A stretch of DNA of 64,000 nt. Origin: a virus (taxonomy: Duplodnaviria > Caudoviricetes). The stretch spans positions 1 to 64,000 of the IMG/VR virus record IMGVR_UViG_3300014039_000024; one strand, written 5' to 3'. Within the stretch, counting starts at the first letter, position 1. The number at the start of each line of letters is the position of its first letter. Below are positions 49,143 through 62,282 of this stretch, piece after piece. Under the pieces are notes generated by a model. The model saw only the letters and a program-made list of their open reading frames with translations. It had not been told where the DNA came from and made no database searches. A program made the position numbers and the translations under genes.

Positions 49143-49244
49143 ACGAGCGATCCGCGCTCGTCGAGCTGCACAAAAACAGACCCCCGCCGACAAAAACTTT
49201 TGTGCAATCCGCCACTTGTATTCCGTGGCTGAATCTGCTACCAT
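49143..49244 (+). repeat. Early-arm element copy 1 (divergent)
   Basis: GC hairpin ACGAGCG/CGCTCGT; TGCACAAAA-22-TTTTGTGCA; promoter TTGTAT-17-TACCAT. Confidence 0.65.
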
Positions 49245-49305
49245 GTAACCATGCTGAACGACGCAAGCGTCGGACAGCAAATACATGATAAAGAGGAATT
49301 GAACC

Positions 49306-49686
49306 ATGAAGAAAGTCGATATTAAAAATGAACAGCGCGCCGTGCTCATCAATTATCTTGACGCAAAAGAAGCACTGGACATTGCAAGCAAGGCTGAAAA
49401 AGCCGCAAAAGCCGCCGCGAAAGATTTATTTGCGGATTTGGGCAAAGAATATAAAGCAAGTGAAAAATCCGATTTCTTGACGCTCTCTTTACAGAAACAG
49501 GGCGAGGTCAAGCACGTTGTCTATACTGAAACCGCGGCAAAAGGTGCTATCGACTGGCAGGCTTACGCGCTCGCGTTAGGCGGCACTCCGGCAGGCGCAG
49601 AGGAATACCGCAAGGCAGGCAATACCCGTACAAGCATCGCATGGGCAAGCGCCAAGCAGGAAGCGGAAATTGCGGAGAGAGGTTAA
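49306..49686 (+). CDS. 126-aa Ala/Lys-rich hypothetical early protein
   Basis: GAGGA RBS; stop codon at centre of a palindrome. Confidence 0.8.
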   Translation: MKKVDIKNEQRAVLINYLDAKEALDIASKAEKAAKAAAKDLFADLGKEYKASEKSDFLTLSLQKQGEVKHVVYTETAAKGAIDWQAYALALGGTPAGAEEYRKAGNTRTSIAWASAKQEAEIAERG

Positions 49687-49747
49687 CCTCTCTCCCATTC
49701 AAAAGAATAATAACGTGTTAGCGCGATAGCGCGGAAAGGGTCATACT

Positions 49748-50227
49748 ATGAAAATCATCAATCTCACTTCTTATACTTGCGCAGATATCAACAACATAGC
49801 GGAAAAGGCGCGCGATATAGTACGCGAGGGCCAGCGCAAAGTGACTGACTATATGGCCAGATATCAGACTATGGCGGGCACGTGGATGAAAGCCAGTGCT
49901 AAACATGAAAAAATCAACATAGCGACCGCGCTTGAGTGCTTGCGCTATGAGCAGGAACTCGCCAGTGACCTCGCCATTATTGCGAGTGTATGGAATACCA
50001 CGCGCTTTACCGTGGTGGAGTACAGCATCGTGGATAATGAGTTTGGCGATATCTATGACTATGTCGCTTATTTCCACGGCGAGGGCGAACGCGTCAAGTT
50101 TGAACGCGAGAACGCCAAGGTGGGCAACCGTCTGACCGTATTGACTACGTATGAATGCGGAATTGACCAGCTCCCCGACGATGAGCGGGAAGACGTCATC
50201 CGCGACCTGTTTAGCGAGTGGGTTTAA
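49748..50227 (+). CDS. 159-aa hypothetical early protein
   Basis: GAAAGGG RBS, TAA stop. Confidence 0.75.
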   Translation: MKIINLTSYTCADINNIAEKARDIVREGQRKVTDYMARYQTMAGTWMKASAKHEKINIATALECLRYEQELASDLAIIASVWNTTRFTVVEYSIVDNEFGDIYDYVAYFHGEGERVKFERENAKVGNRLTVLTTYECGIDQLPDDEREDVIRDLFSEWV

Positions 50228-50258
50228 CCCACTCGCACCAGAGAAGGGGGTCTGTATT

Positions 50259-50390
50259 ATGTCTACTATTGCTATTATCTGTCTCGCTTCTATCTGCGCT
50301 TACAATTTTGTGTATAGCGTGGATAGTAAAAAGCCCGCTCGCGCTATTGCCAGCACTGTCGCCCTTATGTCGCTTATCGCCATTCTGTGA
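50259..50390 (+). CDS. 43-aa two-helix membrane peptide
   Basis: AAGGGGG RBS; MSTIAIICLASICAYNFVYSVDSKKPARAIASTVALMSLIAIL. Confidence 0.6.
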   Translation: MSTIAIICLASICAYNFVYSVDSKKPARAIASTVALMSLIAIL

Positions 50391-50406
50391 AAGAGAGGAA
50401 AGAATT

Positions 50407-50766
50407 ATGAAAAACATCATCAACTATATGCTTGCTATTGCACTTCTTATCAGTGCTACTATGTTTGTATCTCACAACCAGACTACCGAAGCGTGTGAAG
50501 AAGCGCCGCAGTCATATGACCTTTCAGTCATTGATAATTGGTGCGGCGCTGGCACTGAAAAGGGAAGCATTCGTTTCGTGGGTGCAGAAGTCGAATCCCG
50601 AAACGGGGACGTTATCACACTGCTGGACGAACAGGGCAACCTGTGGAAAGTCGAGCATATGAACATTGATGACAATGACTTCTTGTTGCTGTGGATAAAT
50701 GACAATGATACATATGATGATTTTTCAGATGATGTTATCATTAAGGTATGGAGAGAAGCTTATTAA
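50407..50766 (+). CDS. 119-aa secreted/membrane-anchored acidic protein
   Basis: GAGGAA RBS; N-terminal signal-like MKNIINYMLAIALLISATMFVS. Confidence 0.75.
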   Translation: MKNIINYMLAIALLISATMFVSHNQTTEACEEAPQSYDLSVIDNWCGAGTEKGSIRFVGAEVESRNGDVITLLDEQGNLWKVEHMNIDDNDFLLLWINDNDTYDDFSDDVIIKVWREAY

Positions 50767-50782
50767 GCTTCTCTCTTCATTT

Positions 50783-50838
50783 TTCATTTTGATTCATAAA
50801 TATTCATACATATTCATTGCATATTCATACATATTCAT
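50783..50838 (+). repeat. Helically phased TTCAT/ATATTCAT direct repeats
   Basis: ATATTCAT at 50800, 50810, 50821, 50831; TTCAT also ending at 50787 and 50797 (10-11 bp period). Confidence 0.8.
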
Positions 50839-50843
50839 TTGAG

Positions 50844-50925
50844 CGGCGCGACGTGGGCCGCGGCGCGCCGAGTTTTGCAATAGGCAAGTTGCACAAAAAT
50901 TTTTAGATGAATTTGTGCATTATGC
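50844..50925 (+). repeat. Early-arm element copy 2
   Basis: 27-nt hairpin CGGCGCG/CGCGCCG at 50844-50870; TGCACAAA-14-TTTGTGCA at 50890-50919. Confidence 0.8.
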
Positions 50926-51012
50926 CAGTCACCTTTATACACCCGAAAAATGAATATTTATACATGAATATTCATACAGCCCTGATGAATAAATATTTTT
51001 TTCAAAAACCTA

Positions 51013-51040
51013 TTGACATTCAGCTCAAAAGTGGTATAAT
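51013..51040 (+). promoter_or_regulatory. Sigma-A promoter
   Basis: TTGACA-16-TATAAT with TG extension. Confidence 0.75.
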
Positions 51041-51072
51041 AGTAGTATCAAAAGAAAAGGAGATACACCATA

Positions 51073-51369
51073 ATGACTAACACCGAATTCCTCAAGACCC
51101 TCTCGCTCGAAAAAACGCGCCTCGAACACGAACTCATCACTGCCACAGAAAAGGCCGATAACCTCGATACGGTGGAAGCGCTTGCATGGACTGCGGTTAT
51201 TACCATGGAGCACGCGCCAGAAGAAGAATACACCCGTGAACAATGCGAAGCGCTGTATGATGCCTATGAACTGGCAATACGCGCAAGCGAAGAGCAAGCC
51301 GACTACGTAGAAGAAATTGAAAATGCAATTGAAAAAATCAAATCGTTAATAGAAATGTACGAGGACTAA
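51073..51369 (+). CDS. 98-aa acidic coiled-coil protein
   Basis: AAGGAG RBS; own promoter and terminator. Confidence 0.8.
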   Translation: MTNTEFLKTLSLEKTRLEHELITATEKADNLDTVEALAWTAVITMEHAPEEEYTREQCEALYDAYELAIRASEEQADYVEEIENAIEKIKSLIEMYED

Positions 51370-51388
51370 ACCTCGTACATTTTTTTTA
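51355..51388 (+). terminator. Rho-independent terminator overlapping stop codon
   Basis: ATGTACGAGG/CCTCGTACAT stem plus T-run. Confidence 0.8.
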
Positions 51389-51397
51389 TAAATGGTA

Positions 51398-51426
51398 TTG
51401 ACAAATGCCCTGTTATCTGCTACAAT
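51398..51426 (+). promoter_or_regulatory. Sigma-A promoter
   Basis: TTGACA-17-TACAAT with TG extension. Confidence 0.8.
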
Positions 51427-51458
51427 ATAAGTACAGTAAAGAAAAGGAGATAACAACA

Positions 51459-51587
51459 ATGTATGAATTCGAATTTATCAACAAAATCACTAACGAGCAT
51501 GACATTCGGCAATCGTTATACTGTAAAGCCCCGGACCTCGGTCCGGATTGGGAGCTTGTCTTTACAGAGTATGTGGAGGAGTATTAA
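51459..51587 (+). CDS. 42-aa acidic peptide
   Basis: AAGGAG RBS; MYEFEFINKITNEHDIRQ... Confidence 0.65.
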   Translation: MYEFEFINKITNEHDIRQSLYCKAPDLGPDWELVFTEYVEEY

Positions 51588-51588
51588 A

Positions 51589-51693
51589 ATGAGTGTACAT
51601 GACGGTTTAGTTTTACTTTTCATTTACCTTGCTACAATCGGCGCGGGCGCGCTGATTGAATGGGCAGAAAACAAGTTGAAAAAGAGAAGTTAA
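51589..51693 (+). CDS. 34-aa single-TM peptide
   Basis: GGAGGAG RBS; MSVHDGLVLLFIYLATIGAGALIEWAENKLKKRS. Confidence 0.65.
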   Translation: MSVHDGLVLLFIYLATIGAGALIEWAENKLKKRS

Positions 51694-51721
51694 AAAACTT
51701 CTCTTTTTTTACAAAAAATAC

Positions 51722-51750
51722 TTGACATTTTCCGCGGTTTGTGGTATTAT
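51722..51750 (+). promoter_or_regulatory. Sigma-A promoter
   Basis: TTGACA-17-TATTAT with TG extension. Confidence 0.75.
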
Positions 51751-51798
51751 AATTTCAGAAAGAGGAAGGATACCTCACAAACCAGAAAGGCTAATTCA

Positions 51799-51960
51799 AT
51801 GACTACTATCAAGACTCTTCTCGACGGCGTTCTCCCTGTCAAGCCCCTGTCCTATGTCCTCGGTGATGACTGGACGTATCTTTACTCCGACACCTACAAG
51901 GGTGTGGAATTTGACGTCCACGCCTGCATGAACGGCGAGGTCGTCGCGGTGTTAAATTAA
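51799..51960 (+). CDS. 53-aa hypothetical protein
   Basis: GAAAGG RBS; followed by AAGGG/CCCTT terminator. Confidence 0.7.
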   Translation: MTTIKTLLDGVLPVKPLSYVLGDDWTYLYSDTYKGVEFDVHACMNGEVVAVLN

Positions 51961-51996
51961 GGGTTGAAAAGCCCTTAATTTTTTTTACAAAAACTC

Positions 51997-52025
51997 TTGA
52001 CAAATCCAGAAGTAAGTGCTATGCT
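51997..52025 (+). promoter_or_regulatory. Sigma-A promoter
   Basis: TTGACA-17-TATGCT with TG extension. Confidence 0.7.
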
Positions 52026-52055
52026 ATAGATACAATAAGAAAGGGGATAGAAACC

Positions 52056-52313
52056 ATGAAGACTTACAACATTCTCACTATCGAACCGCCTTGCTCCGAC
52101 CAGAAGCTCGCCGGTAAATTCAATGTCGCTGATAATGAAAACTTCCTCGACCGATTAGAGGAAACGCTTTACATTCTCTTTGAATTAGAGCCGATGTTCC
52201 GCTATTGGAGACAAGACTTTCTCAAAAACCTGTCCACTTGCTTTACTTACCACTTATGCGAAAATTTCCGCGTAGAAAAGCACAGCAACGAAATTGTTAT
52301 TTATGAAATTTAA
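52056..52313 (+). CDS. 85-aa hypothetical protein
   Basis: AAGGGG RBS; own promoter and terminator. Confidence 0.75.
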   Translation: MKTYNILTIEPPCSDQKLAGKFNVADNENFLDRLEETLYILFELEPMFRYWRQDFLKNLSTCFTYHLCENFRVEKHSNEIVIYEI

Positions 52314-52358
52314 GGGCGAAAACGCCCTTATTTTTTTGAAAAAATCTGAAAAAAACTA

Positions 52359-52386
52359 TTGACAAACCCCAAATCTATGGTATAAT
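52359..52386 (+). promoter_or_regulatory. Sigma-A promoter
   Basis: TTGACA-16-TATAAT with TG extension. Confidence 0.75.
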
Positions 52387-52416
52387 AAGAGTATAAAAGG
52401 AAAGGGGATAGACCAA

Positions 52417-52578
52417 ATGACTATCGAAGAACTGAGTACAAAGCTGACTGAATGGATTGACCATTATGGAATCACTGAGGAATCCATGAACGATTTCGCA
52501 AACACATATGCGACCTCATATGAGGAATATAACGCCATCTGGGAAGAAATCTTGAATCCACTTTTGGAAAACAATTAA
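52417..52578 (+). CDS. 53-aa acidic protein
   Basis: AAGGGG RBS; MTIEELSTKLTEWIDHYG...ILNPLLENN; below ORF-track cut-off. Confidence 0.7.
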   Translation: MTIEELSTKLTEWIDHYGITEESMNDFANTYATSYEEYNAIWEEILNPLLENN

Positions 52579-52590
52579 AAATTTGAAATG

Positions 52591-52628
52591 AAAATTCAGC
52601 GGATTACATAAAAATCCGCTGAATTTTT
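52591..52628 (+). terminator. Bidirectional-type terminator
   Basis: AAAATTCAGCGGATT/AATCCGCTGAATTTT. Confidence 0.75.
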
Positions 52629-52644
52629 ATGCACCTTATCCCGC

Positions 52645-52773
52645 ATATTCATTTGGCCGGCCGTGCGCGACTGGCGCGGCCGGAATTTGCTGTCAATAAG
52701 CCATTTGCACAATTTTTATGGCGAAAGTTTGTGCATTATACCAATAGACAAAATCCCGTATGTGTGCTATACT
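52645..52773 (+). repeat. Early-arm element copy 3
   Basis: ATATTCATTTG, 27-nt hairpin CCGGCCG/CGGCCGG (52657-52683), TGTCAA, TGCACAA-16-TTGTGCA, promoter TAGACA-17-TATACT. Confidence 0.85.
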
Positions 52774-52823
52774 GTAATCACAGTAAGGGAAGGAAAACCC
52801 ATCAAACCGGAAAGGGAAAACGC

Positions 52824-53132
52824 ATGATTAACATTCGTTCTATTCGCAAGCTCGCTGACAATGATGGCCTGACGCTTAAATATGGCAAGGTCGTTCGTTA
52901 CAAGTCCGGCTGGCAAGTCGCCACCGAGGGCGTGGAGTGTGCGACCGCACGTGAAGCTATTAACGCGGTCAAAGAATATGGTGGCAACTGCGGCGTCTGG
53001 TTCGCAAATGGTATCTATTATATCGACCGTTCCAAGAGGGTCCAGACTAAAAAGGTCGCACTTGCCATTGGTCAGGCGCATAACCAAATCAGCGTATATG
53101 GCTGGGCTCGTGGCAATCTGGCTTATTGCTAA
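52824..53132 (+). CDS. 102-aa hypothetical protein
   Basis: GAAAGGG RBS before MINIRSIRKL; upstream part of the ORF call lies in the repeat element. Confidence 0.75.
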   Translation: MINIRSIRKLADNDGLTLKYGKVVRYKSGWQVATEGVECATAREAINAVKEYGGNCGVWFANGIYYIDRSKRVQTKKVALAIGQAHNQISVYGWARGNLAYC

Positions 53133-53139
53133 AAGAATT

Positions 53140-53179
53140 GCATATAGGGCTTGACAAATCGAGCCCTATATGCTACAAT
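53140..53179 (+). promoter_or_regulatory. Promoter with -35 inside a 12-bp inverted repeat
   Basis: GCATATAGGGCT-TGACAAATCG-AGCCCTATATGC; TTGACA-17-TACAAT. Confidence 0.8.
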
Positions 53180-53214
53180 ATGAATATCAAATGAAAGTGA
53201 AAGGGGACTCCAAA

Positions 53215-53484
53215 ATGGAAATTAAATATGCTCATGAGATGGCTGACAAAGCCAAAACTGCCCGCAAAAATAAGCGCGCAAAGGACAACGCGGTCGCCCG
53301 CGTATATATCGAAGAACATCTGATGAAAGATATCGAAGCGGCCGCGGACAAAGGCGAAAATACACTCTACCGTTGCCTCGTTGCCATCGAGGATGAGGCA
53401 GTTAAAGAAGCTGTCAAGGGTGTTATGCGCAACTACGGCTATGATGCCACATATACGAACGGGATTCTTTCTCTGTCGTGGTAA
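53215..53484 (+). CDS. 89-aa hypothetical protein
   Basis: AAGGGG RBS; terminator 53488-53515. Confidence 0.75.
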   Translation: MEIKYAHEMADKAKTARKNKRAKDNAVARVYIEEHLMKDIEAAADKGENTLYRCLVAIEDEAVKEAVKGVMRNYGYDATYTNGILSLSW

Positions 53485-53527
53485 ATAAAGAGGGGAAAAT
53501 TTTCCCCTCTTTTTTCAAAAATACCTC

Positions 53528-53556
53528 TTGACAAATATATGCAAGCATGATATAAT
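53528..53556 (+). promoter_or_regulatory. Sigma-A promoter
   Basis: TTGACA-17-TATAAT with TG extension. Confidence 0.85.
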
Positions 53557-53587
53557 ACAAGTATAATAAAGGAAAGGGGAAACTACA

Positions 53588-53944
53588 ATGAATAGAGATA
53601 TTTATAACATCCTAAAGAAAACTATGGCGTCCGGTATTCTTTCACCTATGGATTTGAATACTGCGGAACGCGCTTGCGAAAAGTATGAAAGAAATTTAGA
53701 GGACGCCCGCAAAGAACGCGAGTATCAGTCACAGCGAATGGTTAAGCTCGTCTATGAACTGCTCAATGACGCGGGTAAGCCCATCACACCGACTGAAATG
53801 CAGTTTATGGCGTTTAAGAAGTATGGCTATGAGTACGCCAATGGCAAATTCACTTGGTACTGTATGCAGTTATTCTTCGACCGTGAACTCAAACGCGAAC
53901 CCCGAGGGAATAAAGTTTATTATTCTATTCGAGAAAAAGAATAA
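53588..53944 (+). CDS. 118-aa protein with C-terminal winged-helix-like domain
   Basis: LLNDAGKPITPTEM..ELKREPRGNKVYYSI resembles wHTH wing. Confidence 0.6.
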   Translation: MNRDIYNILKKTMASGILSPMDLNTAERACEKYERNLEDARKEREYQSQRMVKLVYELLNDAGKPITPTEMQFMAFKKYGYEYANGKFTWYCMQLFFDRELKREPRGNKVYYSIREKE

Positions 53945-53954
53945 AAAAATAAGA

Positions 53955-53991
53955 AAAGGGGCTTGACAAAAGCCCCTTTCTTTGCTATACT
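53955..53991 (+). promoter_or_regulatory. Promoter with -35 at hairpin apex
   Basis: AAAGGGGCTT-GACAA-AAGCCCCTTT; TTGACA-17-TATACT. Confidence 0.8.
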
Positions 53992-54021
53992 TAATGTATC
54001 AAAGGAGAGGGGAATAAAAAA

Positions 54022-54093
54022 ATGGAATGTCCTTATTGCGATGAAAAGTGCGGAACTCATGCTCAATGTATAAAGTGCGGAAAGGGAAATTGA
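54022..54093 (+). CDS. 23-aa Cys-rich micro-ORF
   Basis: GGAGAGGGG RBS; MECPYCDEKCGTHAQCIKCGKGN. Confidence 0.5.
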   Translation: MECPYCDEKCGTHAQCIKCGKGN

Positions 54094-54094
54094 A

Positions 54095-54439
54095 ATGAAT
54101 ACAGAATTTCTAATTGTAGGTGGAATCTTTAGCGCAGTTATCAGTTTATTTGTGATGCTTATTTGTTGGTGCAACATGGATAAGCACCGTCCAGTAGTAA
54201 GAATCCTAACTGGTATTCTTATTTCATGTGCTATTGGTTATGCGCTTGTTGGGTCTGTTTTTTTGGAGCGCAGTGCCGATGAAAAAGCATGGAATAATGG
54301 TTATTGCTCTATCTGTGGAAATGAGATGAAATTTGTGAATGCTTCTCATGGCAGACATGGGACAGTTTATTATTATTGGTATTGTGATAAATGCGGGCAC
54401 ACATTAGAATTAACGTCTAATTTCAGAAAGGAAAATTAA
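54095..54439 (+). CDS. 114-aa membrane protein with C-terminal Zn ribbon
   Basis: Two hydrophobic helices; CSIC..CDKC. Confidence 0.75.
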   Translation: MNTEFLIVGGIFSAVISLFVMLICWCNMDKHRPVVRILTGILISCAIGYALVGSVFLERSADEKAWNNGYCSICGNEMKFVNASHGRHGTVYYYWYCDKCGHTLELTSNFRKEN

Positions 54440-54440
54440 C

Positions 54441-54647
54441 ATGAACGAAAAGAGTATTCCTCAGACCTTGAAAGAACAAGCAGAGGCCATCGAAAAGCTG
54501 GCACAGAGAATTTCAAAAGAAAGTCAGGCACTGCCAGACATGGAAGACCGCATTAGTGGAATGGAAATAGCGGATGCCCTGTTTTCATTTCAGTCAAAAA
54601 TGCGATATGAATTCAAATGGATTGCGGAATCCATGTGGGATGAATAA
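54441..54647 (+). CDS. 68-aa helical protein
   Basis: GAAAGGA RBS; terminator 54650-54686. Confidence 0.7.
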   Translation: MNEKSIPQTLKEQAEAIEKLAQRISKESQALPDMEDRISGMEIADALFSFQSKMRYEFKWIAESMWDE

Positions 54648-54696
54648 TTATTCGGGTGAGATAACCAAATCTCACCCGAATTTTTTGTTTCATTTG

Positions 54697-54883
54697 ACTA
54701 TTGACAAAACCATCTGGAAGGTGTATAATTCAGCCGGCCGCCAACGTACGCTGCGGCCGGAAATTCCAGTATATCACAGCTCCAGCAATTTGTCAAGCAA
54801 AAAATTGAAAAAAGTTACACAAATTATTTTTCCCAAATTTGTGCATTTTACCAGTAGACAAAACGCTATGAGCGTGTTATACT
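54697..54883 (+). repeat. Early-arm element copy 4 (complete)
   Basis: TTGACA-17-TATAAT (54701-54729); hairpin CCGGCCGC/GCGGCCGG 54734-54760; antisense promoter; CACAAATT/AATTTGTG; TAGACA-17-TATACT (54855-54883). Confidence 0.9.
54768..54796 (-). promoter_or_regulatory. Antisense sigma-A promoter in element 4
   Basis: Minus-strand TTGACA-17-TATACT with TG extension. Confidence 0.75.
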
Positions 54884-54918
54884 ATAATTGTTCCAAGGGG
54901 AACGGAAAGGTAAGGTAA

Positions 54919-55131
54919 ATGAAAATGACCAACTACGATATCCATGCTTTCGTCAAGACCCAGCTTCTTTATGCCGAGCAGATGCCCAGTGATGCCGAGC
55001 TCTTCAAACACAACGCATATGGCGCTGTCCAGTGGGAACTGTACCGCACCAACGACAAGGCACTTGAAAACAAGTGGAATGACGTATATGCGCCCAAGTT
55101 TGATAAAATTATCAAAAATTATTGGGCATAA
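54919..55131 (+). CDS. 70-aa hypothetical protein
   Basis: AAGGTAAGG RBS. Confidence 0.75.
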   Translation: MKMTNYDIHAFVKTQLLYAEQMPSDAELFKHNAYGAVQWELYRTNDKALENKWNDVYAPKFDKIIKNYWA

Positions 55132-55165
55132 GGGGTTGACAAAACCCCTTTCCCCATGGTATAAT
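55130..55165 (+). promoter_or_regulatory. Promoter with -35 at hairpin apex
   Basis: AAGGGGTT-GACAA-AACCCCTT; TTGACA-18-TATAAT. Confidence 0.75.
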
Positions 55166-55202
55166 ATCATCAATCCAAGAGAGAAAGAAAGAGGTAAATC
55201 AA

Positions 55203-55544
55203 ATGCTTATCAAAATGTCCAAACACGCCACGCAAGACCGCATCGACCGCTTGTTCTTCATCTATGATAATATCGGCATTGGTGAAGAGTATATCAACAG
55301 CGTAGAGGATGACGTGCTTTATACTATTACAACGACTGGCGTTCTGCTTGTGCGCAGTCCAAAAGATGGAACACTGATTACCGCCTATATCGCGGACATT
55401 GACAAAATCACCGCGATTTGGAGAAACAAGCACGGTGAGCGTCCTATGCCTGACAATCTTTACAAGCGCGTCCTCGCAAATGCGTTCTTTGACAGAATGT
55501 GGAACAAAATTGAAAAGGATGGTAAGAAAAATGTTGTTCGGTAA
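55203..55544 (+). CDS. 113-aa protein, possible BECR/RelE-like RNase fold
   Basis: SKHATQDR..R and TLITAY motifs. Confidence 0.5.
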   Translation: MLIKMSKHATQDRIDRLFFIYDNIGIGEEYINSVEDDVLYTITTTGVLLVRSPKDGTLITAYIADIDKITAIWRNKHGERPMPDNLYKRVLANAFFDRMWNKIEKDGKKNVVR

Positions 55545-55890
55545 AAAAGAAAAGAAATTCAATCCCTACGAGAACCACGCGGACGAACTTCTTTATGAGC
55601 TTTGGGACGTGGAACGCCACCTTGAAGAGTGTGTTGAAAAGTCAATTGCGCGGATAGGCGTTGTGTCTTTATATCCAGATGGGCCTGACCGCAGAAAAGC
55701 ACTATCTGATGCCGATGAAGCTAAACATTCCTTGCTTGTTGCTATTGGAGCATTTGATACATCCCGCATGGTTTACAATGATTATGTAAACAAGCATCAA
55801 GAAAACTTTGATAATCCGCGGAAGCCGTGGAAACACACAAGTCATGAAACCATTGAGCGGGTTTATAAGAATTTTTATAAGAGAGGTTAA
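55531..55890 (+). CDS. 119-aa hypothetical protein
   Basis: Start overlapping previous gene; MLFGKKEKKFNPYEN... Confidence 0.7.
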   Translation: MLFGKKEKKFNPYENHADELLYELWDVERHLEECVEKSIARIGVVSLYPDGPDRRKALSDADEAKHSLLVAIGAFDTSRMVYNDYVNKHQENFDNPRKPWKHTSHETIERVYKNFYKRG

Positions 55891-55895
55891 GTAAA

Positions 55896-56135
55896 ATGAA
55901 AATTACTGTTAAGAATAATAATAAACTTGTTCCGTTTGAAGATATCCCTATCGGTATGGTTTTCAAAGACCCTGTAAGTCGTGATATGTATTATATTAAG
56001 GCCGAATCGGTTCTTGATGAAAACACCGATGAAGAAGAACTAAACTCTTTCTGTGTTAGCAATAACACTTTTAACTGTTTCGGTCCTCAGTATATGGTTC
56101 AGCCCACCTACGGCGCAGAATTGATTATTCCCTGA
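55896..56135 (+). CDS. 79-aa hypothetical protein
   Basis: GAGG RBS, TGA stop. Confidence 0.75.
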   Translation: MKITVKNNNKLVPFEDIPIGMVFKDPVSRDMYYIKAESVLDENTDEEELNSFCVSNNTFNCFGPQYMVQPTYGAELIIP

Positions 56136-56245
56136 TAAAACCGAACATTTGTTCGCGTTTATTTCTCCCCCTTTCCAATGGCTTTGGCAGTTGAGCCTAT
56201 CAACTGCCACCCTTTCCAAAAATTATTTTTAAGGAGAATAGAAAA

Positions 56246-56425
56246 ATGGAAAATAAGGAAATGCTTAGCGAAGTGGTTGAAAAGGTCTGTGCGATGGCTC
56301 GTTATGGTATTCAGAAGCGTTTCGCTCCCGATGAAGCAGGGGCAAAGGAAATGATTGAGCGTGTTTCGCTCATTGAGGATAAGCTCGTTCCTATTCTCAT
56401 CGACCTTGAAGCTGTAGAAAGTTGA
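56246..56425 (+). CDS. 59-aa hypothetical protein
   Basis: AAGGAG RBS; MENKEMLSEVVEKVCAMARYG...; terminator 56429-56458. Confidence 0.7.
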   Translation: MENKEMLSEVVEKVCAMARYGIQKRFAPDEAGAKEMIERVSLIEDKLVPILIDLEAVES

Positions 56426-56468
56426 ATGAAAAATCACCCAATTTGGGTGATTTTTTTTGTTTAATTTC

Positions 56469-56622
56469 ACTATTGACAAAGTTCCTTAAATGTGATAAAA
56501 TCGCCGCGCGCGAACGGCTGTGGCGCGCCGAGTTTTTGTCAAGATGTAAGTTCAACAAATTTTTGTACGATTTTTTGGTTATTCTGCCAATAGACAAAAT
56601 TCCCAAAATCTGGTAATATAGT
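56469..56622 (+). repeat. Early-arm element copy 5 (antisense -10 missing)
   Basis: TTGACA-17-TAAAAT (56473-56501); imperfect CGCCGCG/CGCGCCG hairpin; TGTCAA directly after it; TAGACA promoter at 56591. Confidence 0.8.
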
Positions 56623-56649
56623 ATCATAAAAGGAAAGGGAGAAATCAAA

Positions 56650-57087
56650 ATGAAAAAGTACAGTGTTTATAAGTATAATAACCGCACATTCCGCGTTTAT
56701 GTGTCAGAGTGTGGATATGGCTTGGTTGATGTGGTCGTGCGCGAGGTCGTACACCCTGAGCGCAAGTTTTTCAAAACGAGATATTTCTATCAGAATATCT
56801 ACTGCACCGAAGATTTTGAAGAAATCAGCGATATTGAGCGGTCTGCCATAGCATGTGGTTTTGCTTTGGAAGAACAGCATCAGGCTTATGAAGCTAAAAT
56901 GGAAAAGGTGGTGTCAAGAATGATGTATGAAGAAGTTAATACCTATATACTCGAAGATTGGCTGAGCGCATGGGTAGAAACGTTCAATGATTGCGCGTGT
57001 TGTCCCTTGTCCGACCAGTGCGACCGCGAGGGCGGGATTGATAGTATAGTATGTGCAGATAGATTATTAGAGAAATTAAAAGAGTAA
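56650..57087 (+). CDS. 145-aa protein with C-terminal Cys cluster
   Basis: AAGGGAG RBS; CACCPLSDQC..C. Confidence 0.75.
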   Translation: MKKYSVYKYNNRTFRVYVSECGYGLVDVVVREVVHPERKFFKTRYFYQNIYCTEDFEEISDIERSAIACGFALEEQHQAYEAKMEKVVSRMMYEEVNTYILEDWLSAWVETFNDCACCPLSDQCDREGGIDSIVCADRLLEKLKE

Positions 57088-57102
57088 ATTAAAAATTTCT
57101 TA

Positions 57103-57131
57103 TTGACAATAATATTATAATATGATATTAT
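57103..57131 (+). promoter_or_regulatory. Sigma-A promoter
   Basis: TTGACA-17-TATTAT with TG extension. Confidence 0.7.
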
Positions 57132-57160
57132 TACAATAGAAAAAGGAAAGGGTGATATCT

Positions 57161-57634
57161 ATGAATACAATTCTTTTATTCGCGGGATGCACCGCAGTTA
57201 ATGTGATTCTATCAACCATTAAAAGCATCGTAACTGTCAAGGGCGGAAAGTTTATTGCATCTCTGATGAACGCTTTGACTTATGGATTTTATTCCTATGT
57301 CATTATTTTAACTTCCGCAGATGGTATGAGCGTTTGGGCAAAAATGGGCATTACTGCCGTCTGTAATTTCGTGGGCGTTTACCTTGTCAAGTGGATTGAG
57401 GAAAAAGCCCGCAAGGATAGGCTGTGGGAGATTCGAGCGACCATTCCCGCAAACAATACACAGGAAGTTCATTCTGCATTGAAGGACGTTCCACACAATT
57501 ATATTCTTAATGTGGGCAAGTATACTGTATTTAATATTTACTGTGCCACACAAAAAGAAAGTGCTATGGTCAAGCCGGTCTTAAATCAATATGGGGCAAA
57601 GTATTTTGTTTCCGAAAGTAAAAATCTTGATTAA
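57161..57634 (+). CDS. UPF0316 (DUF5698/DUF2179)-like membrane protein, 157 aa
   Basis: NVILSTIKSIVTVKG..ASLMNALTYGFY..CNFVGVYL; three TM helices plus soluble C-terminus. Confidence 0.7.
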   Translation: MNTILLFAGCTAVNVILSTIKSIVTVKGGKFIASLMNALTYGFYSYVIILTSADGMSVWAKMGITAVCNFVGVYLVKWIEEKARKDRLWEIRATIPANNTQEVHSALKDVPHNYILNVGKYTVFNIYCATQKESAMVKPVLNQYGAKYFVSESKNLD

Positions 57635-57648
57635 GGGGAGAAATTAAA

Positions 57649-58101
57649 ATGAAAGCTACTGGTATTATTCGCAGAATTGATGACCTTGGACGTGTAGTTA
57701 TTCCGAAAGAAATTCGACGCACTCTTAAAATTCGCGAGGGAGACCCACTTGAAATTTTCTTGGGAGAGCAGAATACAATCTGTTTCAAGAAGTATTGTGT
57801 CCTCGGTAAGATGGATGATGAAGTCCTGCGAGTAGCGGTTGAGATGGCAAGAAAGTCAAATCTTGCACCTATTGCAATTTATGACCGCGGAGAAAAGTTG
57901 AAAGGAATGGAGAACTTCCCATCTTACGTCCCCGACGAATGGAGAAATTATTCTGAACCTTTTCTTTATAATGCCACTTATGGTGTTTACCCCATCATTA
58001 CGAACGGTGATTTTGAGGGCTATGTTGTTTGTGACCACAGTAGTATTAGCGTTGAAATGGGAATGATTGCTCGCTATCTGAGTGTTGCAATTGAGGAATA
58101 A
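57649..58101 (+). CDS. AbrB/SpoVT-family transcription regulator, 150 aa
   Basis: MKATGIIRRIDDLGRVVIPKEIRRTLKIREGDPLEIF matches the SpoVT/AbrB N-terminal domain closely. Confidence 0.9.
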   Translation: MKATGIIRRIDDLGRVVIPKEIRRTLKIREGDPLEIFLGEQNTICFKKYCVLGKMDDEVLRVAVEMARKSNLAPIAIYDRGEKLKGMENFPSYVPDEWRNYSEPFLYNATYGVYPIITNGDFEGYVVCDHSSISVEMGMIARYLSVAIEE

Positions 58102-58103
58102 CT

Positions 58104-58289
58104 ATGAGAGTTGAAAAGAAATATCAGGTTGACTATAACGGGACGAACCCTTGGGGTCAAAGTTATGATAATCGAATGCTTTTTGATTCCGAGGAAGAAG
58201 CAGATGTTTTTATCGAAAAGCTGAAACAGGATGAAAATATCTATCAGGCATTCAAAACTGTTACAACCTGTTTCTATCACTTACATTAA
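58104..58289 (+). CDS. 61-aa hypothetical protein
   Basis: GAGGA RBS; terminator 58294-58332. Confidence 0.7.
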   Translation: MRVEKKYQVDYNGTNPWGQSYDNRMLFDSEEEADVFIEKLKQDENIYQAFKTVTTCFYHLH

Positions 58290-58342
58290 AAATATTTTGA
58301 GACGAGATAACCAAATCTCGTCTCAAAATTTTATCTATTTTA

Positions 58343-58527
58343 CCTATTGACAAATAGGCTCAGGTATGATAAAATGGCCGGCCGTTTGCGTCTGCCACGG
58401 CCGGAATTTCAATTATACCACCATCCCAACAATTTGTCAATAGACAATTTGAATAAAAATCTCGCACTTAAATTTCCCGATTTTGTGCATTTTGCCAATA
58501 GACAAATCAATACTGACCTGTTATACT
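58343..58527 (+). repeat. Early-arm element copy 6 (complete)
   Basis: TTGACA-17-TAAAAT (58347-58375); hairpin CCGGCCGT/ACGGCCGG 58378-58404; antisense promoter; TAGACA-17-TATACT (58499-58527). Confidence 0.9.
58412..58440 (-). promoter_or_regulatory. Antisense sigma-A promoter in element 6
   Basis: Minus-strand TTGACA-17-TATAAT with TG extension. Confidence 0.8.
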
Positions 58528-58559
58528 ATAGATACAGTAAAGGAAAGGGGAACAACAAA

Positions 58560-59057
58560 ATGAAAATTATTTACATCAAGTCTCACGTGCGGATTCGCCG
58601 GTCTATCAATTTGGATATGGACGGCACTATTGCTGACCTTTACGGCGTTAAGGACTGGCTTCCGCTTCTCCGTTCGGAAAATCCTAGGCCTTACCGAATG
58701 GCAATCCCTATGTGCGACATGACCGCGTTGAATGAAGTGTGCGAACTTCTCCGTGCGGACGGCTGGGAAATCAATATCATTACTTGGCTTTCTAAGGATT
58801 CGAGCGAGGAATACAAAGATGCCGTTCGTAAAGCAAAGCGCGCTTGGTTGAAAGAGCAGGGTTTCCACTACGACCATTTTCACGGCATTCAGTATGGCGC
58901 GACCAAAGCCGACAGTGTGCGCGACCGTTATGATTTTTCTATCCTTGTTGATGATAACAAAAAAGTCCGTGATGGTTGGCACATTGGTTCAACTATTGAC
59001 CCAACCGCTGAAAATTTGGTTGAAGCGCTGAAAGAAATTTTGGAGAAAGGGGCTTGA
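58560..59057 (+). CDS. HAD-superfamily 5'(3')-deoxyribonucleotidase-like phosphatase, 165 aa
   Basis: LDMDGTIADL (DxDxT), ITW, K, ILVDD motifs; AAGGGG RBS before 58560. Confidence 0.85.
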   Translation: MKIIYIKSHVRIRRSINLDMDGTIADLYGVKDWLPLLRSENPRPYRMAIPMCDMTALNEVCELLRADGWEINIITWLSKDSSEEYKDAVRKAKRAWLKEQGFHYDHFHGIQYGATKADSVRDRYDFSILVDDNKKVRDGWHIGSTIDPTAENLVEALKEILEKGA

Positions 59058-59082
59058 CAAGCCCCGCTCCATGTGTTATAAT
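59049..59082 (+). promoter_or_regulatory. Promoter with -35 at hairpin apex
   Basis: GGGGCTT-GAC-AAGCCCC; TTGACA-17-TATAAT; upstream TGA stop lies inside the -35. Confidence 0.8.
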
Positions 59083-59109
59083 CAATGTATCAAATGAAAG
59101 GGTGATAAA

Positions 59110-59253
59110 ATGATGCCTTACTTTTGGCTTACTCTTGGTGTTCTCGCAAAAGTGACTGGACAGACTGAGGGCGGTAACTATTACTATGAAACCGTTGTCT
59201 CCAAAGAAATTGGACTCGTAACCGCAGAATGGGTTCATAGCCATTTGATGTGA
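59110..59253 (+). CDS. 47-aa hypothetical protein
   Basis: GAAAGGGTG RBS; MMPYFWLTLGVLAKVTG... Confidence 0.55.
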   Translation: MMPYFWLTLGVLAKVTGQTEGGNYYYETVVSKEIGLVTAEWVHSHLM

Positions 59254-59262
59254 GGTAAAAAA

Positions 59263-59577
59263 ATGTTGTACTTAATGATGGATGATTTAGCCAACAGTCA
59301 TTTGGTAAAAGTTGGTTATTCCGATGGCACTAAAAATCTCGCAAAGCGTCGCAAAAGCTATTATAGCCATAATCCAAAAGCAATAATGCGTAGTACCTGT
59401 GCGGGCAGTCGAGACATGGAAAATACTTGTCATCAGACTTTAAGTGAGTTAGGTATCCGCATTAGTGGTACAGAATGGTTTGAAGTGCCAGCGGATTTGT
59501 TTGATTCTCTTTACTATAAAGGAATGGCATTTTTTAGACCAAATCATAAGCCGATTCATTTCTTAGAAGAATTTTGA
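59263..59577 (+). CDS. T5orf172/GIY-YIG-like protein, 104 aa
   Basis: LYLM..LVKVGYS..R..ME..H..GTEWF. Confidence 0.75.
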   Translation: MLYLMMDDLANSHLVKVGYSDGTKNLAKRRKSYYSHNPKAIMRSTCAGSRDMENTCHQTLSELGIRISGTEWFEVPADLFDSLYYKGMAFFRPNHKPIHFLEEF

Positions 59578-59591
59578 AAAGGGGAAAAATT

Positions 59592-59846
59592 ATGAAAGTA
59601 AATTTTGGCGACAAAGGCAAGCTCCAAATTATGAATATTTTGTGCGGTGGCACGTTCACCACGCAAAGGAGCGAGGGCGGAACGGGAATGTATCTCAAAG
59701 TTGATGGCAACAACAAAGCTCCGTTTATTAAATCAAGGGGTTGGCAATTTTGTTATGCAGTCAATCTTGAAACGGGTCAGATTCGAGAATTTTCTCGTGA
59801 ACAGTTGGTTACCCCTGTTAAAACCGAAGTCAATGTAATTGACTAA
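59592..59846 (+). CDS. 84-aa hypothetical protein
   Basis: AAGGGG RBS; terminator 59857-59887. Confidence 0.7.
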   Translation: MKVNFGDKGKLQIMNILCGGTFTTQRSEGGTGMYLKVDGNNKAPFIKSRGWQFCYAVNLETGQIREFSREQLVTPVKTEVNVID

Positions 59847-59897
59847 TTTCAAAATGAAAATCTCCCCAAAAATGGGGAGATTTTTTTGTTTATTTTG

Positions 59898-60084
59898 ACT
59901 ATTGACACCGACCGGGGAATGTGATAAAATTGGCCGGTCGCCCACGCACGTTGCGACCGGAATTTACCATTATACACCCTGCCAGCATTTTTGTCAAGAG
60001 AAATTTTGCACAAATTTGATTATTTTCAGATCCCGAAACTTGTGCAATTTGTCAATAGACAAATCAATACTGACCTGCTATAAT
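59898..60084 (+). repeat. Early-arm element copy 7 (complete)
   Basis: TTGACA-17-TAAAAT (59902-59930); hairpin CCGGTCGC/GCGACCGG 59934-59960; antisense promoter; TGCACAA/TTGTGCA; TAGACA-17-TATAAT (60056-60084). Confidence 0.9.
59969..59997 (-). promoter_or_regulatory. Antisense sigma-A promoter in element 7
   Basis: Minus-strand TTGACA-17-TATAAT. Confidence 0.8.
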
Positions 60085-60089
60085 ACATA

Positions 60090-60205
60090 ATGTCAGGAGG
60101 AAAGAGTAAGACCTGCGGAAAGGCGGTTCACCTGACCATTGTACCAGAAGTCGGTGCGAAAGTCTCAAGCGTGGCGTGCCGAACAAACTTTCAAAAAAGT
60201 TTGAA
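60090..60205 (+). ncRNA. Candidate structured small RNA A
   Basis: Follows promoter 60056-60084, no RBS before the ATG at 60090; stems GTCAGG/CCTGAC and TCGGTGCG/CGTGCCGA. Confidence 0.4.
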
Positions 60206-60212
60206 AAACCCC

Positions 60213-60241
60213 TTGACAAATCGCTCATCCTATGGTACAAT
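60213..60241 (+). promoter_or_regulatory. Sigma-A promoter
   Basis: TTGACA-17-TACAAT with TG extension. Confidence 0.8.
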
Positions 60242-60272
60242 GAATACATCAAATGAGAGAGGTATAAACAAG

Positions 60273-60377
60273 ATGACTATTGAAGCTCGTCCACCGCCTA
60301 AAAAAATTCGCAAAAACCTATTGACAAACCCGCAAATCTATGATACAATAACTACATCAAAGACAAGGACAGTCTAA
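60273..60377 (+). CDS. 34-aa micro-ORF MTIEARPPPKK...
   Basis: Own promoter and GAGAGAGG RBS; runs across the next promoter. Confidence 0.4.
   Translation: MTIEARPPPKKIRKNLLTNPQIYDTITTSKTRTV
60321..60349 (+). promoter_or_regulatory. Sigma-A promoter
   Basis: TTGACA-17-TACAAT with TG extension. Confidence 0.8.
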
Positions 60378-60400
60378 AATACCAGAAAGGAATTGATACT

Positions 60401-60775
60401 ATGTCTACTTCTACTGTTAAGAAGCTCACCAAGCGCGACCGTTTCGAGGCTCTTCTCAAGATGACCGAGGTTCAGGCAAACCCTGATATGGTTGAGTTCA
60501 TCAACCATGAGATTGAGCTTCTCGCCAAGAAGAACGCGGGCGATAAGAAGCCCACAGCCAAGCAGATGGAGAATGACGCGGTGAAGCAGGTCATTCTGGA
60601 CGCCATGACCGAGAACGCGGGTAAGCTGTTCACTGTGACTGACCTGATTAAGAGCGTCCCCGAACTGGGGGATTACTCCAATCAGCGTGTTTCCGCTCTT
60701 CTGCGCCAGATGATTGAAGCGGGTGCTGTCGTTAAGACGGTCGATAAGCGCAAGTCTTATTTCTCCCTTGCGTAA
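60401..60775 (+). CDS. Winged-helix-like DNA-binding protein, paralog 1 (124 aa)
   Basis: FTVTDLIK..SNQRVSALLRQM..VVKTVDKRKSYF; terminator 60783-60812. Confidence 0.7.
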   Translation: MSTSTVKKLTKRDRFEALLKMTEVQANPDMVEFINHEIELLAKKNAGDKKPTAKQMENDAVKQVILDAMTENAGKLFTVTDLIKSVPELGDYSNQRVSALLRQMIEAGAVVKTVDKRKSYFSLA

Positions 60776-60825
60776 AGGGCAAGGGACAGGGGATAAAAAA
60801 ATCCCCTGTCCCGCATAAAAAAGTC

Positions 60826-60854
60826 TTGACAAATCCAAAAGTAAGCGTTATAAT
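60826..60854 (+). promoter_or_regulatory. Sigma-A promoter
   Basis: TTGACA-17-TATAAT. Confidence 0.85.
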
Positions 60855-60918
60855 ACTTATAGAGGTTGAGAGAACGATGGTAAACCTCAATCGAATTTTA
60901 TGAATGGAGACATACAAC

Positions 60919-61695
60919 ATGAGCATTGATAAGCGCAGAAACTACGGTATCATGTTAGATACTGAAACCGCGAACACTATCCAGCAGGGCGATAAACTGG
61001 ATATGTCGAACGTCTTGCCGTATGATTTTGGATGGGCGGTCATTGATTCCAAGGGCAACGTCTATGAAACTTATTCCTTTGTGAATCGCGACATTTTCTG
61101 CTATGAGCGCGACCTGATGCAGTCCGCCTATTACGCCGACAAGATTCCCCGCTATATCGAGGACATTGCGAACGGCACCCGAATCATGGCAGACCTATTT
61201 GAAATTCGACAGGCTTTCTGCGACTGCGTGGAACGCTATAATTGTTCTTTTGTGTGTGCTCACAACATGAGATTTGACCTTAATGCTTGCAACAATGCTC
61301 AGCGTTGGGACACGAAAAGCAAGTATCGCTATTTCTTCCCTTACGGGCTTGAAGTGTGGGACACTCTGAAAATGGCGCGACAGATTATCGGCAAGATGCC
61401 TACTTACCGCGATTATTGCGAACAAAACGGCTACAAGACTAAAAATGGACAGCTCCGCTTTACCGCAGAAATCCTTTACCGCTTTATTAGTGGTGAAGAA
61501 GAATTTGATGAATCGCATACGGGACTTGAAGATGTTCTGATTGAAGTTGAGATTTTGAAGTATTGTGTTCGTCAGCACAAGGCAATGGAAAAGTCTCTTT
61601 TCAAGAAACCAGAAACGGAACGCCCGCGCCCTACGGACTTCCAGCGGGAACTCATGCGAAACATTAAGGAAAATCCAATGGTAAACATGAGATAA
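60919..61695 (+). CDS. DEDDh-family 3'-5' exonuclease, ~258 aa
   Basis: LDTET (ExoI), AHNMRFD (ExoII), HTGLED (ExoIII); GGAG RBS favours ATG 60919 over 60904. Confidence 0.85.
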   Translation: MSIDKRRNYGIMLDTETANTIQQGDKLDMSNVLPYDFGWAVIDSKGNVYETYSFVNRDIFCYERDLMQSAYYADKIPRYIEDIANGTRIMADLFEIRQAFCDCVERYNCSFVCAHNMRFDLNACNNAQRWDTKSKYRYFFPYGLEVWDTLKMARQIIGKMPTYRDYCEQNGYKTKNGQLRFTAEILYRFISGEEEFDESHTGLEDVLIEVEILKYCVRQHKAMEKSLFKKPETERPRPTDFQRELMRNIKENPMVNMR

Positions 61696-61702
61696 AAAAA
61701 AT

Positions 61703-61743
61703 AGGGAACAGGGCTTGACAAGTCCTGTTCCCTGTGATATAAT
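61703..61743 (+). promoter_or_regulatory. Promoter with -35 at apex of 14-bp hairpin
   Basis: AGGGAACAGGGCTT-GAC-AAGTCCTGTTCCCT (one G.T pair); TTGACA-17-TATAAT. Confidence 0.8.
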
Positions 61744-61773
61744 AAGTACATCCAAAAGAAAGAGGTGTTTCCT

Positions 61774-62052
61774 ATGAACGCAAAACAAGTCCTTTTTGTA
61801 GACCCTAATGAGAATGACCCGCACATGGGTATTCTGATTGACCATGATTACATCATCTGCGCGGAATGCGGTGGCGTTTTTGAAGCTGATGAAGTGCTCA
61901 TCATTAAGACTTATGACTTTTGGGTCAACTTTGAAAATGAAATCGCGGACGAGCTTGACCTACTGACTGCTCAAACCATTGCAAAAGAATTGAATATCGC
62001 GGGCAAGTCAGGGCGCGATATTTGGGCAGAAAAAATTAAAGAAGAATTCTGA
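61774..62052 (+). CDS. 92-aa protein with CxxC
   Basis: GAGGTG RBS; ICAECGG; terminator 62054-62081. Confidence 0.75.
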   Translation: MNAKQVLFVDPNENDPHMGILIDHDYIICAECGGVFEADEVLIIKTYDFWVNFENEIADELDLLTAQTIAKELNIAGKSGRDIWAEKIKEEF

Positions 62053-62091
62053 CAAAAGGGAGAGAAATCTCCCTTTTTTTTGTTTATTTTG

Positions 62092-62277
62092 CCTATTGAC
62101 AAATGCGGATTTCTATGTTAAAATGGGCGGCCCGCGAACGCCCAACGCGGGCCGAATTCACCATTATACCACGCCCCGCCAATTTTGTCAAGAGAAAAGT
62201 TACATAAAAATGAAAAAAGTTTTTTCCCGTAATTTGGTTATTTTGTCAATTGCAATTCGTGGGCAATCTGTTATAAT
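62092..62277 (+). repeat. Early-arm element copy 8 (complete core)
   Basis: TTGACA-17-TAAAAT (62096-62124); hairpin CGGCCCGCG/CGCGGGCCG 62128-62154; antisense promoter; degenerate inverted repeat; TG-TATAAT at 62272. Confidence 0.85.
62163..62191 (-). promoter_or_regulatory. Antisense sigma-A promoter in element 8
   Basis: Minus-strand TTGACA-17-TATAAT with TG extension. Confidence 0.8.
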
Positions 62278-62282
62278 AGATA

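Follow-up and report, generated by a model that had tools for sequence, protein, structure and literature searches.

A Repeated Hairpin-and-Promoter Module with a Fixed Frame in the Early Arm of a TAG-Recoded Phage

Phages that reassign the TAG codon are abundant in gut viromes, and their early programme is almost uncharted. Here, we report a module of ~110 bp, built around a G+C-rich hairpin of 27 nucleotides (nt), that occurs in eight copies along the early arm of one such phage, known from IMG/VR virus record IMGVR_UViG_3300014039_000024. The window (the whole stretch of DNA that was analyzed) comprises the first 64 kb of this 85-kb viral contig; position numbers above 64000 refer to the same genome past the window edge. 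The main new finding is a rigid frame of 80 bp behind the hairpin, and two promoters that flank the stem were also found to stand in exact register with it.

Genome arms and module array

Positions 1 to 48000 hold the virion arm (minus strand, ~30% G+C), with genes for a 2754-aa tape measure protein, a portal, and a large terminase. Its frames are open only with TAG as an amino acid (longest frame, ~2750 aa under TAG=Q versus 376 aa under the standard code), and TAG is read as glutamine in these late genes. The early arm (48 kb to 64.5 kb; plus strand, standard code, 40-45% G+C) holds small genes, the majority of them without a family match, and the step in G+C content coincides with a skew flip at the border of the two arms (1-48000 and 48000-64000). 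Promoters and terminators were called as consensus matches, which for host-type promoters in the early arm gave 73 matches (37 expected), a dozen of them perfect. No tRNA genes were found in 84 kb. The source phage is a tailed phage of roughly 190 kb, and relatives with complete genomes measure 165-200 kb. It probably has a Firmicutes host: the nearest cultured phages by terminase (33-47% identity) infect Enterococcus, Geobacillus, and Bacillus, the style of promoters and ribosome sites is compatible with a Firmicute host, and contigs assigned to gut Clostridia by binning also have the element.

A covariance model built from the phage's own hairpins scored the seven copies in the window at 43.6-55.8 bits (E values, 6e-11 to 6e-15) (Table 1). 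The original prediction, made from the window alone, had listed eight hairpins. Seven of these (50844 to 62128) form one family, and their listed starts were good except for 56502, which is actually 56504; the hairpin at 49143 is a different one, which does not match the model even at an E value of 10 and has only the TGCACAA..TTGTGCA repeat in common with the family. A further copy, predicted near 64 kb, was found at 64238, just beyond the window. With 49143 out and 64238 in, there are thus eight true copies. A covariance-model search of the 48-kb virion arm returned none, as had been claimed. The motif order given earlier for the fullest copies (terminator, sense promoter, hairpin, AATT/AGTT, TGTCAA, TGCACAA..TTGTGCA, and TAGACA promoter) is correct and can be extended, since TGTCAA together with ATTATA makes a perfect minus-strand promoter at 54796, 58440, 59997, and 62191. 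Below, P1 denotes the sense promoter before the hairpin, P2 the operon promoter behind it, and TCCC box the box at +67 of the frame.

Table 1. Positions of the module copies and of the non-member hairpin at the head of the array
Feature	Span	Strand	Score	Hairpin	Upstream parts	Downstream parts
Copy 1		+	43.6 bits (-19 kcal/mol)	50844-50870	No adjoining sense promoter; ATGAATATTCAT-type palindromes flanking	No adjoining antisense promoter; ATGAATATTCAT-type palindromes flanking; box CACCCGAAA 50940-50948; next promoter 51013-51040
Copy 2, short form		+	51.6 bits	52657-52683	Terminator 52595-52628; no sense promoter	No antisense promoter; TGCACAA 52706; TTGTGCA 52729; P2 52745-52773 with TCCC box (52754) in spacer
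Copy 3, full composite	54650-54883	+	50.5 bits	54734-54760	Two-way terminator 54650-54681; P1 54701-54729	Antisense promoter 54796 to 54768 (minus); TCCC box 54827-54838; TTGTGCA 54839; P2 54855-54883
Copy 4, short form with P1	56428-56619	+	45 bits	56504-56530 (one stem mismatch)	Terminator 56428-56456; P1 56473-56501	TCCC box 56597-56608 within spacer of P2 (56591-56619)
Copy 5, full composite	58294-58527	+	48.2 bits	58378-58404	Two-way terminator 58294-58329; P1 58347-58375	Antisense promoter 58440 to 58412 (minus); TCCC box 58471-58482; TTGTGCA 58483; P2 58499-58527
Copy 6, full composite	59856-60084	+	55.8 bits	59934-59960	Terminator 59856-59885; P1 59902-59930	Antisense promoter 59997 to 59969 (minus); TGCACAA 60007; TCCC box 60027-60038; TTGTGCA 60040; P2 60056-60084
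Copy 7, full composite	62054-62277	+	53.2 bits	62128-62154	Terminator 62054-62077; P1 62096-62124	Antisense promoter 62191 to 62163 (minus); TCCC box 62221-62232; P2 62250-62277
Copy 8, special terminal unit of array (past window edge)		+	44.4 bits	64238-64264	P1 at 64206	64265-64500: CCGATCGG, two CATATG repeats, CTAG, TCCCGAAA at 64336
Non-member hairpin at array head		+		49143-49161 (7-bp stem, 5-nt loop)	TCCCGAAA at 49073	TGCACAA 49167; TTGTGCA 49200

Anatomy, conservation, and spacing of the module

The hairpin has a stem of 7-8 bp (the eighth pair is usual), an 11-nt loop, and a folding energy of -13.5 to -23.4 kcal/mol. In the phage's own eight copies, 98% of stem cells were paired and both sides had changed in 3 of 7 pairs; the stem-pairing score was matched by none of 500 shuffles, and slid registers were only 20-43% paired. 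Among 87 distinct hairpins of relatives, all of them metagenomic, stem positions 2, 4, and 5 flip between G-C and C-G at ~50:50 with pairing kept in 85-87 of the 87, and positions 1, 3, 6, and 7 are fixed. Orthologous hairpins of close relatives also differ by paired changes. This maintained pairing shows folding of the 27 nt in single-stranded form. No second conserved helix was found across 124 nt on either strand, where only the 8-bp stem co-varies.

Conservation within the loop is asymmetric (C12, 71/87; G13, 81/87; Y16, 80/87; G17, 67/87). Directly 5' of the stem stands T-N-G-G (TTGG in the core) and directly 3' of it A-N-T-T-T (AATTT at +1), in which T is nearly invariant at +3 to +5 and invariant at +4. 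The tail carries 3.7 T per 8 nt on the sense strand versus 2.2 on the other strand (background, 27%). The asymmetry of strand, loop, and tail thus indicates that the fold is read in one orientation.

The anatomy of the module was surveyed in 105 copies, and its sequence, pairing, strand, registers, conservation, and spacing are direct observations. The frame behind the hairpin consists of CAATTTTT at +27 to +33, AAA at +41, and TTTTCCCGAAA at +67 to +78, with TCCC starting at +70 to +72 in ~60 copies. All clades and subtypes have this frame, among them the special terminal unit, which in its inner sequence has nothing else in common with the other copies. P2 floats relative to the frame, its -35 box lying at +61, +80-84, +91-96, or beyond. 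None of the reading frames stays open through the module (13-43 of the 105 copies per frame), and a coding sequence was ruled out on this ground. The block that follows the hairpin of the terminal unit (64265-64500) is kept in very distant relatives; after it comes an island of small regulator genes that contain TAG and lie on the minus strand.

Inside the frame sit clade-specific repeats (TGCACAA/TTGTGCA here, TTAAAGTGCTAA-like in other clades, ATGAATATTCAT at copy 1), which look like operators. Around copy 1 (50800-51000), many palindromes of the ATGAATATTCAT type form an operator set unlike the TGCACAA repeats of the other copies, and TGAATA-16 nt-CATACA in the same region may resemble forespore sigma promoters. 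Several identities considered for the fixed boxes were dropped. The TCCC box is not a genome-wide promoter element, as outside the early arm it is not enriched and its counts equal those of the control; sigma-54-like, CodY-like, and Spo0A-like readings seemed to fit poorly in a comparison by eye with the consensus sequences.

A terminator lies upstream of 82% of the copies and P2 downstream of 81%; copies without another terminator directly follow a gene end. P1 is present in 46%, and in all 48 cases 2-4 nt separate the end of its -10 box from the stem. An antisense promoter is present in 33%, and each of these 35 has a -10 box that starts 7-8 nt past the stem. Both of these add-on promoters occur in 24% of the copies and neither in 45%.

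A search of related phages, proposed with the original prediction, found the element to be common to a clade of TAG-recoded phages. Eighty loci around related terminases (69-97% identity) contained 96 copies, all on the early-gene strand and no more than 7.1 kb upstream of the terminase. Whole genomes carried 2-13 copies in one cluster in 19 of 20 relatives, and in 18 early arms (13-20 kb) 150 of 150 matches lay on the early-gene strand. Two good copies were also found in Phass-1, a published code-15 phage (terminase identity, 45%), and one of them shows the long architecture in full. No copy was found in three cultured standard-code phages (Enterococcus phage H1, Geobacillus E3, and Enterocloster PMBT24). 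Between orthologous modules, identity is 82-90%, compared with 70-86% for the adjoining genes.

A wider viral scan returned nothing but contigs with arrays of the same element. In bacterial genomes, the scan returned only chance matches in G+C-rich bacteria together with contigs in metagenome-assembled genomes (MAGs) of gut Clostridia, Treponema, and Bacteroidales. Two MAG contigs with several hairpin copies, CALCFD010000051.1 (L201/L225, 147.8 kb) and CALWOP010000177.1 (L206/L216, 149 kb), are labeled Eubacterium and Oscillospiraceae. These ~148-kb contigs are probably phage genomes of the clade binned with their hosts, and thus a host lead. The earlier statement that the architecture is not a described element held: it has no Rfam family (Rfam 15 over 47000-64000, E values up to 1, gave no relevant match), and the papers on promoter-stem-loop elements (PeSLs) of T4-type phages and on Phass-1 contain no description of it.

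The true copies are spaced 1556-2194 nt apart (mean, 1913; coefficient of variation [CV], 0.12), and modules occupy only every second or third intergenic gap. Such evenness arose in 1-5 of 100,000 random draws of eight from the 22-23 intergenic gaps and in 0 of 20,000 draws in a second run. Spacing was more even than random gap choice in all 12 genomes tested (CV, 0.09-0.39; P, 0.03 to <5e-5), which include five distant lineages with largely different gene content. The idea of a ruler-like arrangement is therefore borne out as regards evenness and fails as regards strictness, because orthologous units vary by ~20% in length. Two adjacent units share a duplicated gene (60384-60771 and 62691-63078; 124/125 aa, 73-82% nucleotide identity, 2307-nt offset), so that duplication of units can seed periodicity without any function. 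The family of these paralogs, PHROG 19455 (function unknown), was matched in 16 of 16 early arms of relatives tested.

Proposed role and alternatives

Our tentative reading is that the module serves as a boundary and control module of early transcription units and is recognized through its folded hairpin, each copy delimiting an early super-operon of ~2 kb. The universal core runs from the close of the upstream unit, in most cases at an ordinary terminator, through TTGG, hairpin, AATTT, and frame to P2, a host-type promoter expected to drive the next genes. The hairpin would fold in the strand of sense polarity, most likely as RNA, made by polymerases that pass the upstream terminator or, where there is no other terminator, straight from the upstream gene. 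A factor may then recognize the loop and the U-rich tail, the hairpin acting as a second stop or 3'-end signal that insulates neighboring units, and the fixed frame could be a protein-binding control region of the next promoter.

Assuming starts at the usual 7 nt after the -10 box, P1 transcription would begin inside the 5' arm of the hairpin, so that P1 RNA could not form the full hairpin and would pass through. The predicted antisense RNA would have its start at the 3' foot of the stem and the entire hairpin as its 5' part, and it would be ended after 105-117 nt by the upstream terminator, which is scored as two-way; the antisense promoter probably faces P1 too closely for joint occupancy. 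The context between a unit end and the next promoter, the U-rich tail on the sense strand only, and the register of P1 favor a boundary signal in sense RNA. Inference from sequence covers the RNA nature of the folded species, its role in stopping or marking transcripts, its binding by a factor, and every transcript end.

Several observations weigh against this boundary role. The GC hairpin looks poor as an intrinsic terminator: its stem qualifies, but the loop has 11 nt and at least 5 T in the 8 nt after the stem were found in only 29 of 105 copies, and a simple terminator scan picked up only copy 52657 among the GC hairpins. The 45% of copies with neither P1 nor an antisense promoter would yield hairpin RNA only through read-through. 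Counts of stem mismatches (10 G-T versus 6 A-C) do not tell the folding strand, and pairing in a DNA palindrome can persist by template-switch correction without selection on RNA. The model gives no reason for the even spacing and does not explain the rigid 70-nt distance between hairpin and TCCC box, over which there is neither a co-varying helix nor an open reading frame, so that recognition at the DNA level fits better than an RNA signal. Finally, a co-occurrence comparison yielded no partner protein for the module. An AbrB-like early protein was dropped as a candidate because it occurs in only 12 of 21 genomes and is absent from Phass-1, and only a HAD/PNKP-like protein and one protein without known relatives are shared with Phass-1 and missing from the element-less phages. 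With no partner found, a factor reading the module seems more likely to come from the host than from the phage.

A platform at the DNA level, which we consider unlikely on balance, draws its support from the fixed frame and the even spacing. Here the hairpin, as a cruciform or folded single strand, would be read together with the +27 and +67 boxes by a host or virion protein, which in a ruler-like version would nucleate every ~2 kb to silence, loop, or otherwise organize the early arm. The fixed distances between motifs without RNA covariation or an open reading frame, the regular placement seen in 12 genomes, the choice of only some intergenic gaps, and the conservation of copies that have no promoter on either side of the hairpin all fit such a platform; hairpin centre, +27 box, and +67 box would be ~42 bp apart, i.e., four helical turns. 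As a matter of general DNA physics, however, a G+C-rich loop of 11 nt disfavors cruciform extrusion. Moreover, no conserved phage DNA-binding partner was found (the AbrB-like protein being as patchy as described), the lengths of orthologous units differ, and tandem duplication of units offers a neutral source of periodicity.

It is quite unlikely that the antisense RNA is the main product. In that case, the promoters would form a face-to-face switch in which a strong antisense promoter shuts P1 by interference of the kind reported between convergent promoters (PMC5001618), and the hairpin-capped small RNA might pair with read-through transcripts or act in trans. The window has four perfect or near-perfect minus-strand promoters in exact register, upstream terminators score as two-way, the arrangement is retained in Phass-1, and the two -10 boxes are ~37 bp apart, so that two polymerases presumably cannot both sit there. 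Against this, most copies lack the antisense promoter or the pair of promoters, and whole clades with neither promoter keep the hairpin and the frame.

In a more speculative vein, and with similarly slender probability, the modules may be structure-read landmarks at roughly equal distances, by which a host or virion factor handles the first-expressed arm piecewise. Domain-wise loading, insulation, or shut-off of the early region are conceivable forms of such handling. As the three standard-code cultured phages lack the modules, a landmark role may be tied to the TAG-recoded life style.

The original prediction had also proposed that the elements are recombination modules at which gene blocks are gained, lost, or shuffled, as with PeSLs or the structure-read attC sites of integrons. 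This received little support, and we rate it as very unlikely. The modules are repeated in one orientation and are 60-75% alike within the genome, one adjacent unit is partly duplicated, and conserved early genes stand in permuted order in distant relatives; these few genes, however, do not move as whole units. Three recurrent homology junctions fall exactly at the 5' edge of the hairpin (52655, 54708/54729, and 64172/64234), where P1 is present or absent, and the 3.7-fold enrichment of breakpoints at hairpin edges comes from these three sites only. Over whole modules, breakpoints are enriched 1.9-fold, the figure also obtained for other intergenic junctions, which gives no sign of a particular link between breakpoints and modules. 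Six relatives with 97% identical terminases are collinear with the window, unit by unit, and where two relatives lack one unit, the deletion has its endpoints within genes rather than at modules. Copies group by position rather than by genome, which speaks against recent spread. Tyrosine recombinase (PF00589), serine recombinase, and Y1 transposase (PF01797) families had no match in sequence searches of five complete relatives; for PF00589, the control was matched in 14 of 14 genomes. Shuffling and the antisense switch each account for only a subset of the data.

Least probable is a signal for lagging-strand priming or another replication step on single-stranded DNA at Okazaki-fragment distance: the hairpins are strand specific with conserved loops and spaced 1.5-2.2 kb apart, but a 190-kb genome has them in no more than 13-20 kb, every one lies between genes and beside terminators and promoters, and nothing ties them to replication genes.

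The module exceeds the adjoining early genes in conservation, reaches across phages with terminase identity of only 45%, and is exact in its geometry, with two promoters in register with the hairpin and a fixed box at a distance of 70 nt. Were the hairpin a stop or insulator read by a factor, it would represent a new class of regulated boundary; were it read on DNA, it would be a new way of organizing a phage genome; and equidistant landmarks would amount to a physical organizing principle of a phage genome without a described counterpart. Under either an RNA or a DNA reading, early arms among the metagenomic phage contigs of the clade are recognizable by the covariance model.

Known systems and neighboring features

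PeSLs of T4-type phages are likewise composites of a strong host-type promoter and a stem-loop in many repeats (PMC2839356, PMC4122927), placed in a plastic early region upstream of small genes without known relatives. In PeSLs, the stem-loop is the terminator itself and lies between or over the -35 and -10 boxes (PMC2839356); there are ~50 per genome, at nearly every junction, and their recombination was shown by mini-circles (PMC2839356, PMC4122927). The modules do not fit that definition, as the GC hairpin follows the -10 box of P1 and a separate terminator usually precedes the module. They further differ in a hairpin predicted to lie in the first transcribed bases, a conserved 11-nt loop, the 80-bp fixed frame, and even placement at every second or third junction, with no apparent enrichment of exchange over that at other junctions. 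At ordinary early junctions (53132-53191, 53944-54003, 59035-59094, and 61696-61755), a terminator-like hairpin has the -35 hexamer TTGACA in its loop. Such junctions (e.g., 53955-53979), rather than the GC modules, are the better PeSL analogues.

Integron attC sites also form a same-orientation array of structured sites (~60-140 bp) between cassettes, with structure conserved more than sequence. An attC site is a long imperfect palindrome over its whole length, read by the tyrosine recombinase IntI, and most of its cassettes lack a promoter and can have any length; in the module, the fold is limited to 27 nt, no tyrosine recombinase was matched, each unit has several promoters, and spacing is even. 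Repetitive extragenic palindromes and bacterial interspersed mosaic elements (REP/BIME) of enterobacteria resemble the hairpins as G+C-rich imperfect palindromes with compensatory changes, extragenic and after gene ends. REP/BIME are thought to be RNA 3' protectors and protein sites on DNA, and they are genome-wide, often in inverted pairs, and spread by Y1 transposases, in contrast to the single orientation, the single 13-20 kb arm, the lack of a Y1 transposase match, and the attached fixed frame seen here.

In coliphages 186 and P2, single repressor-controlled switches with face-to-face promoters decide lysogeny. Like these, the paired promoters of the full composites are strong, convergent, and near enough to interfere; unlike these, the pair occurs four times per genome with a hairpin placed exactly between its members, and not every module has it. 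The virion RNA polymerase of phage N4, a giant protein, reads hairpin promoters with 5-7 bp stems and 3-nt loops. Both systems have an early-region DNA hairpin with sequence-specific loop bases, but no phage polymerase was matched here. Family searches gave no phage-encoded match for a sigma factor or a YonO-like polymerase, and none for a T7-like polymerase (PF00940), for which the control was also matchless; these absences refer to sequence searches, beyond whose reach very divergent polymerases lie. A 2564-aa virion-arm protein (minus strand, 1111-8805) with 33 in-frame TAG codons was considered as a virion polymerase and dropped, as it has no match among solved structures and carries an adhesin-type (BspA-type leucine-rich) repeat near its C terminus. 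It is probably an adhesin or fiber.

At 47931-47959 on the minus strand, a perfect TTGACA-17-TATAAT promoter points into the TAG-recoded virion arm, so that the late arm may be transcribed by unmodified host polymerase and timed at translation. Behind the P2 promoters of copies 6 and 7, two promoter-driven stretches (60085-60400 and 62277-62700) have no open reading frame led by a ribosome site and share the leader ATAATGTCA(R)GAGG. They are candidate members of a non-coding RNA family without an Rfam match, and distant relatives (L102 near 12700, L103 near 8290, and L097) have this leader behind P2 as well.

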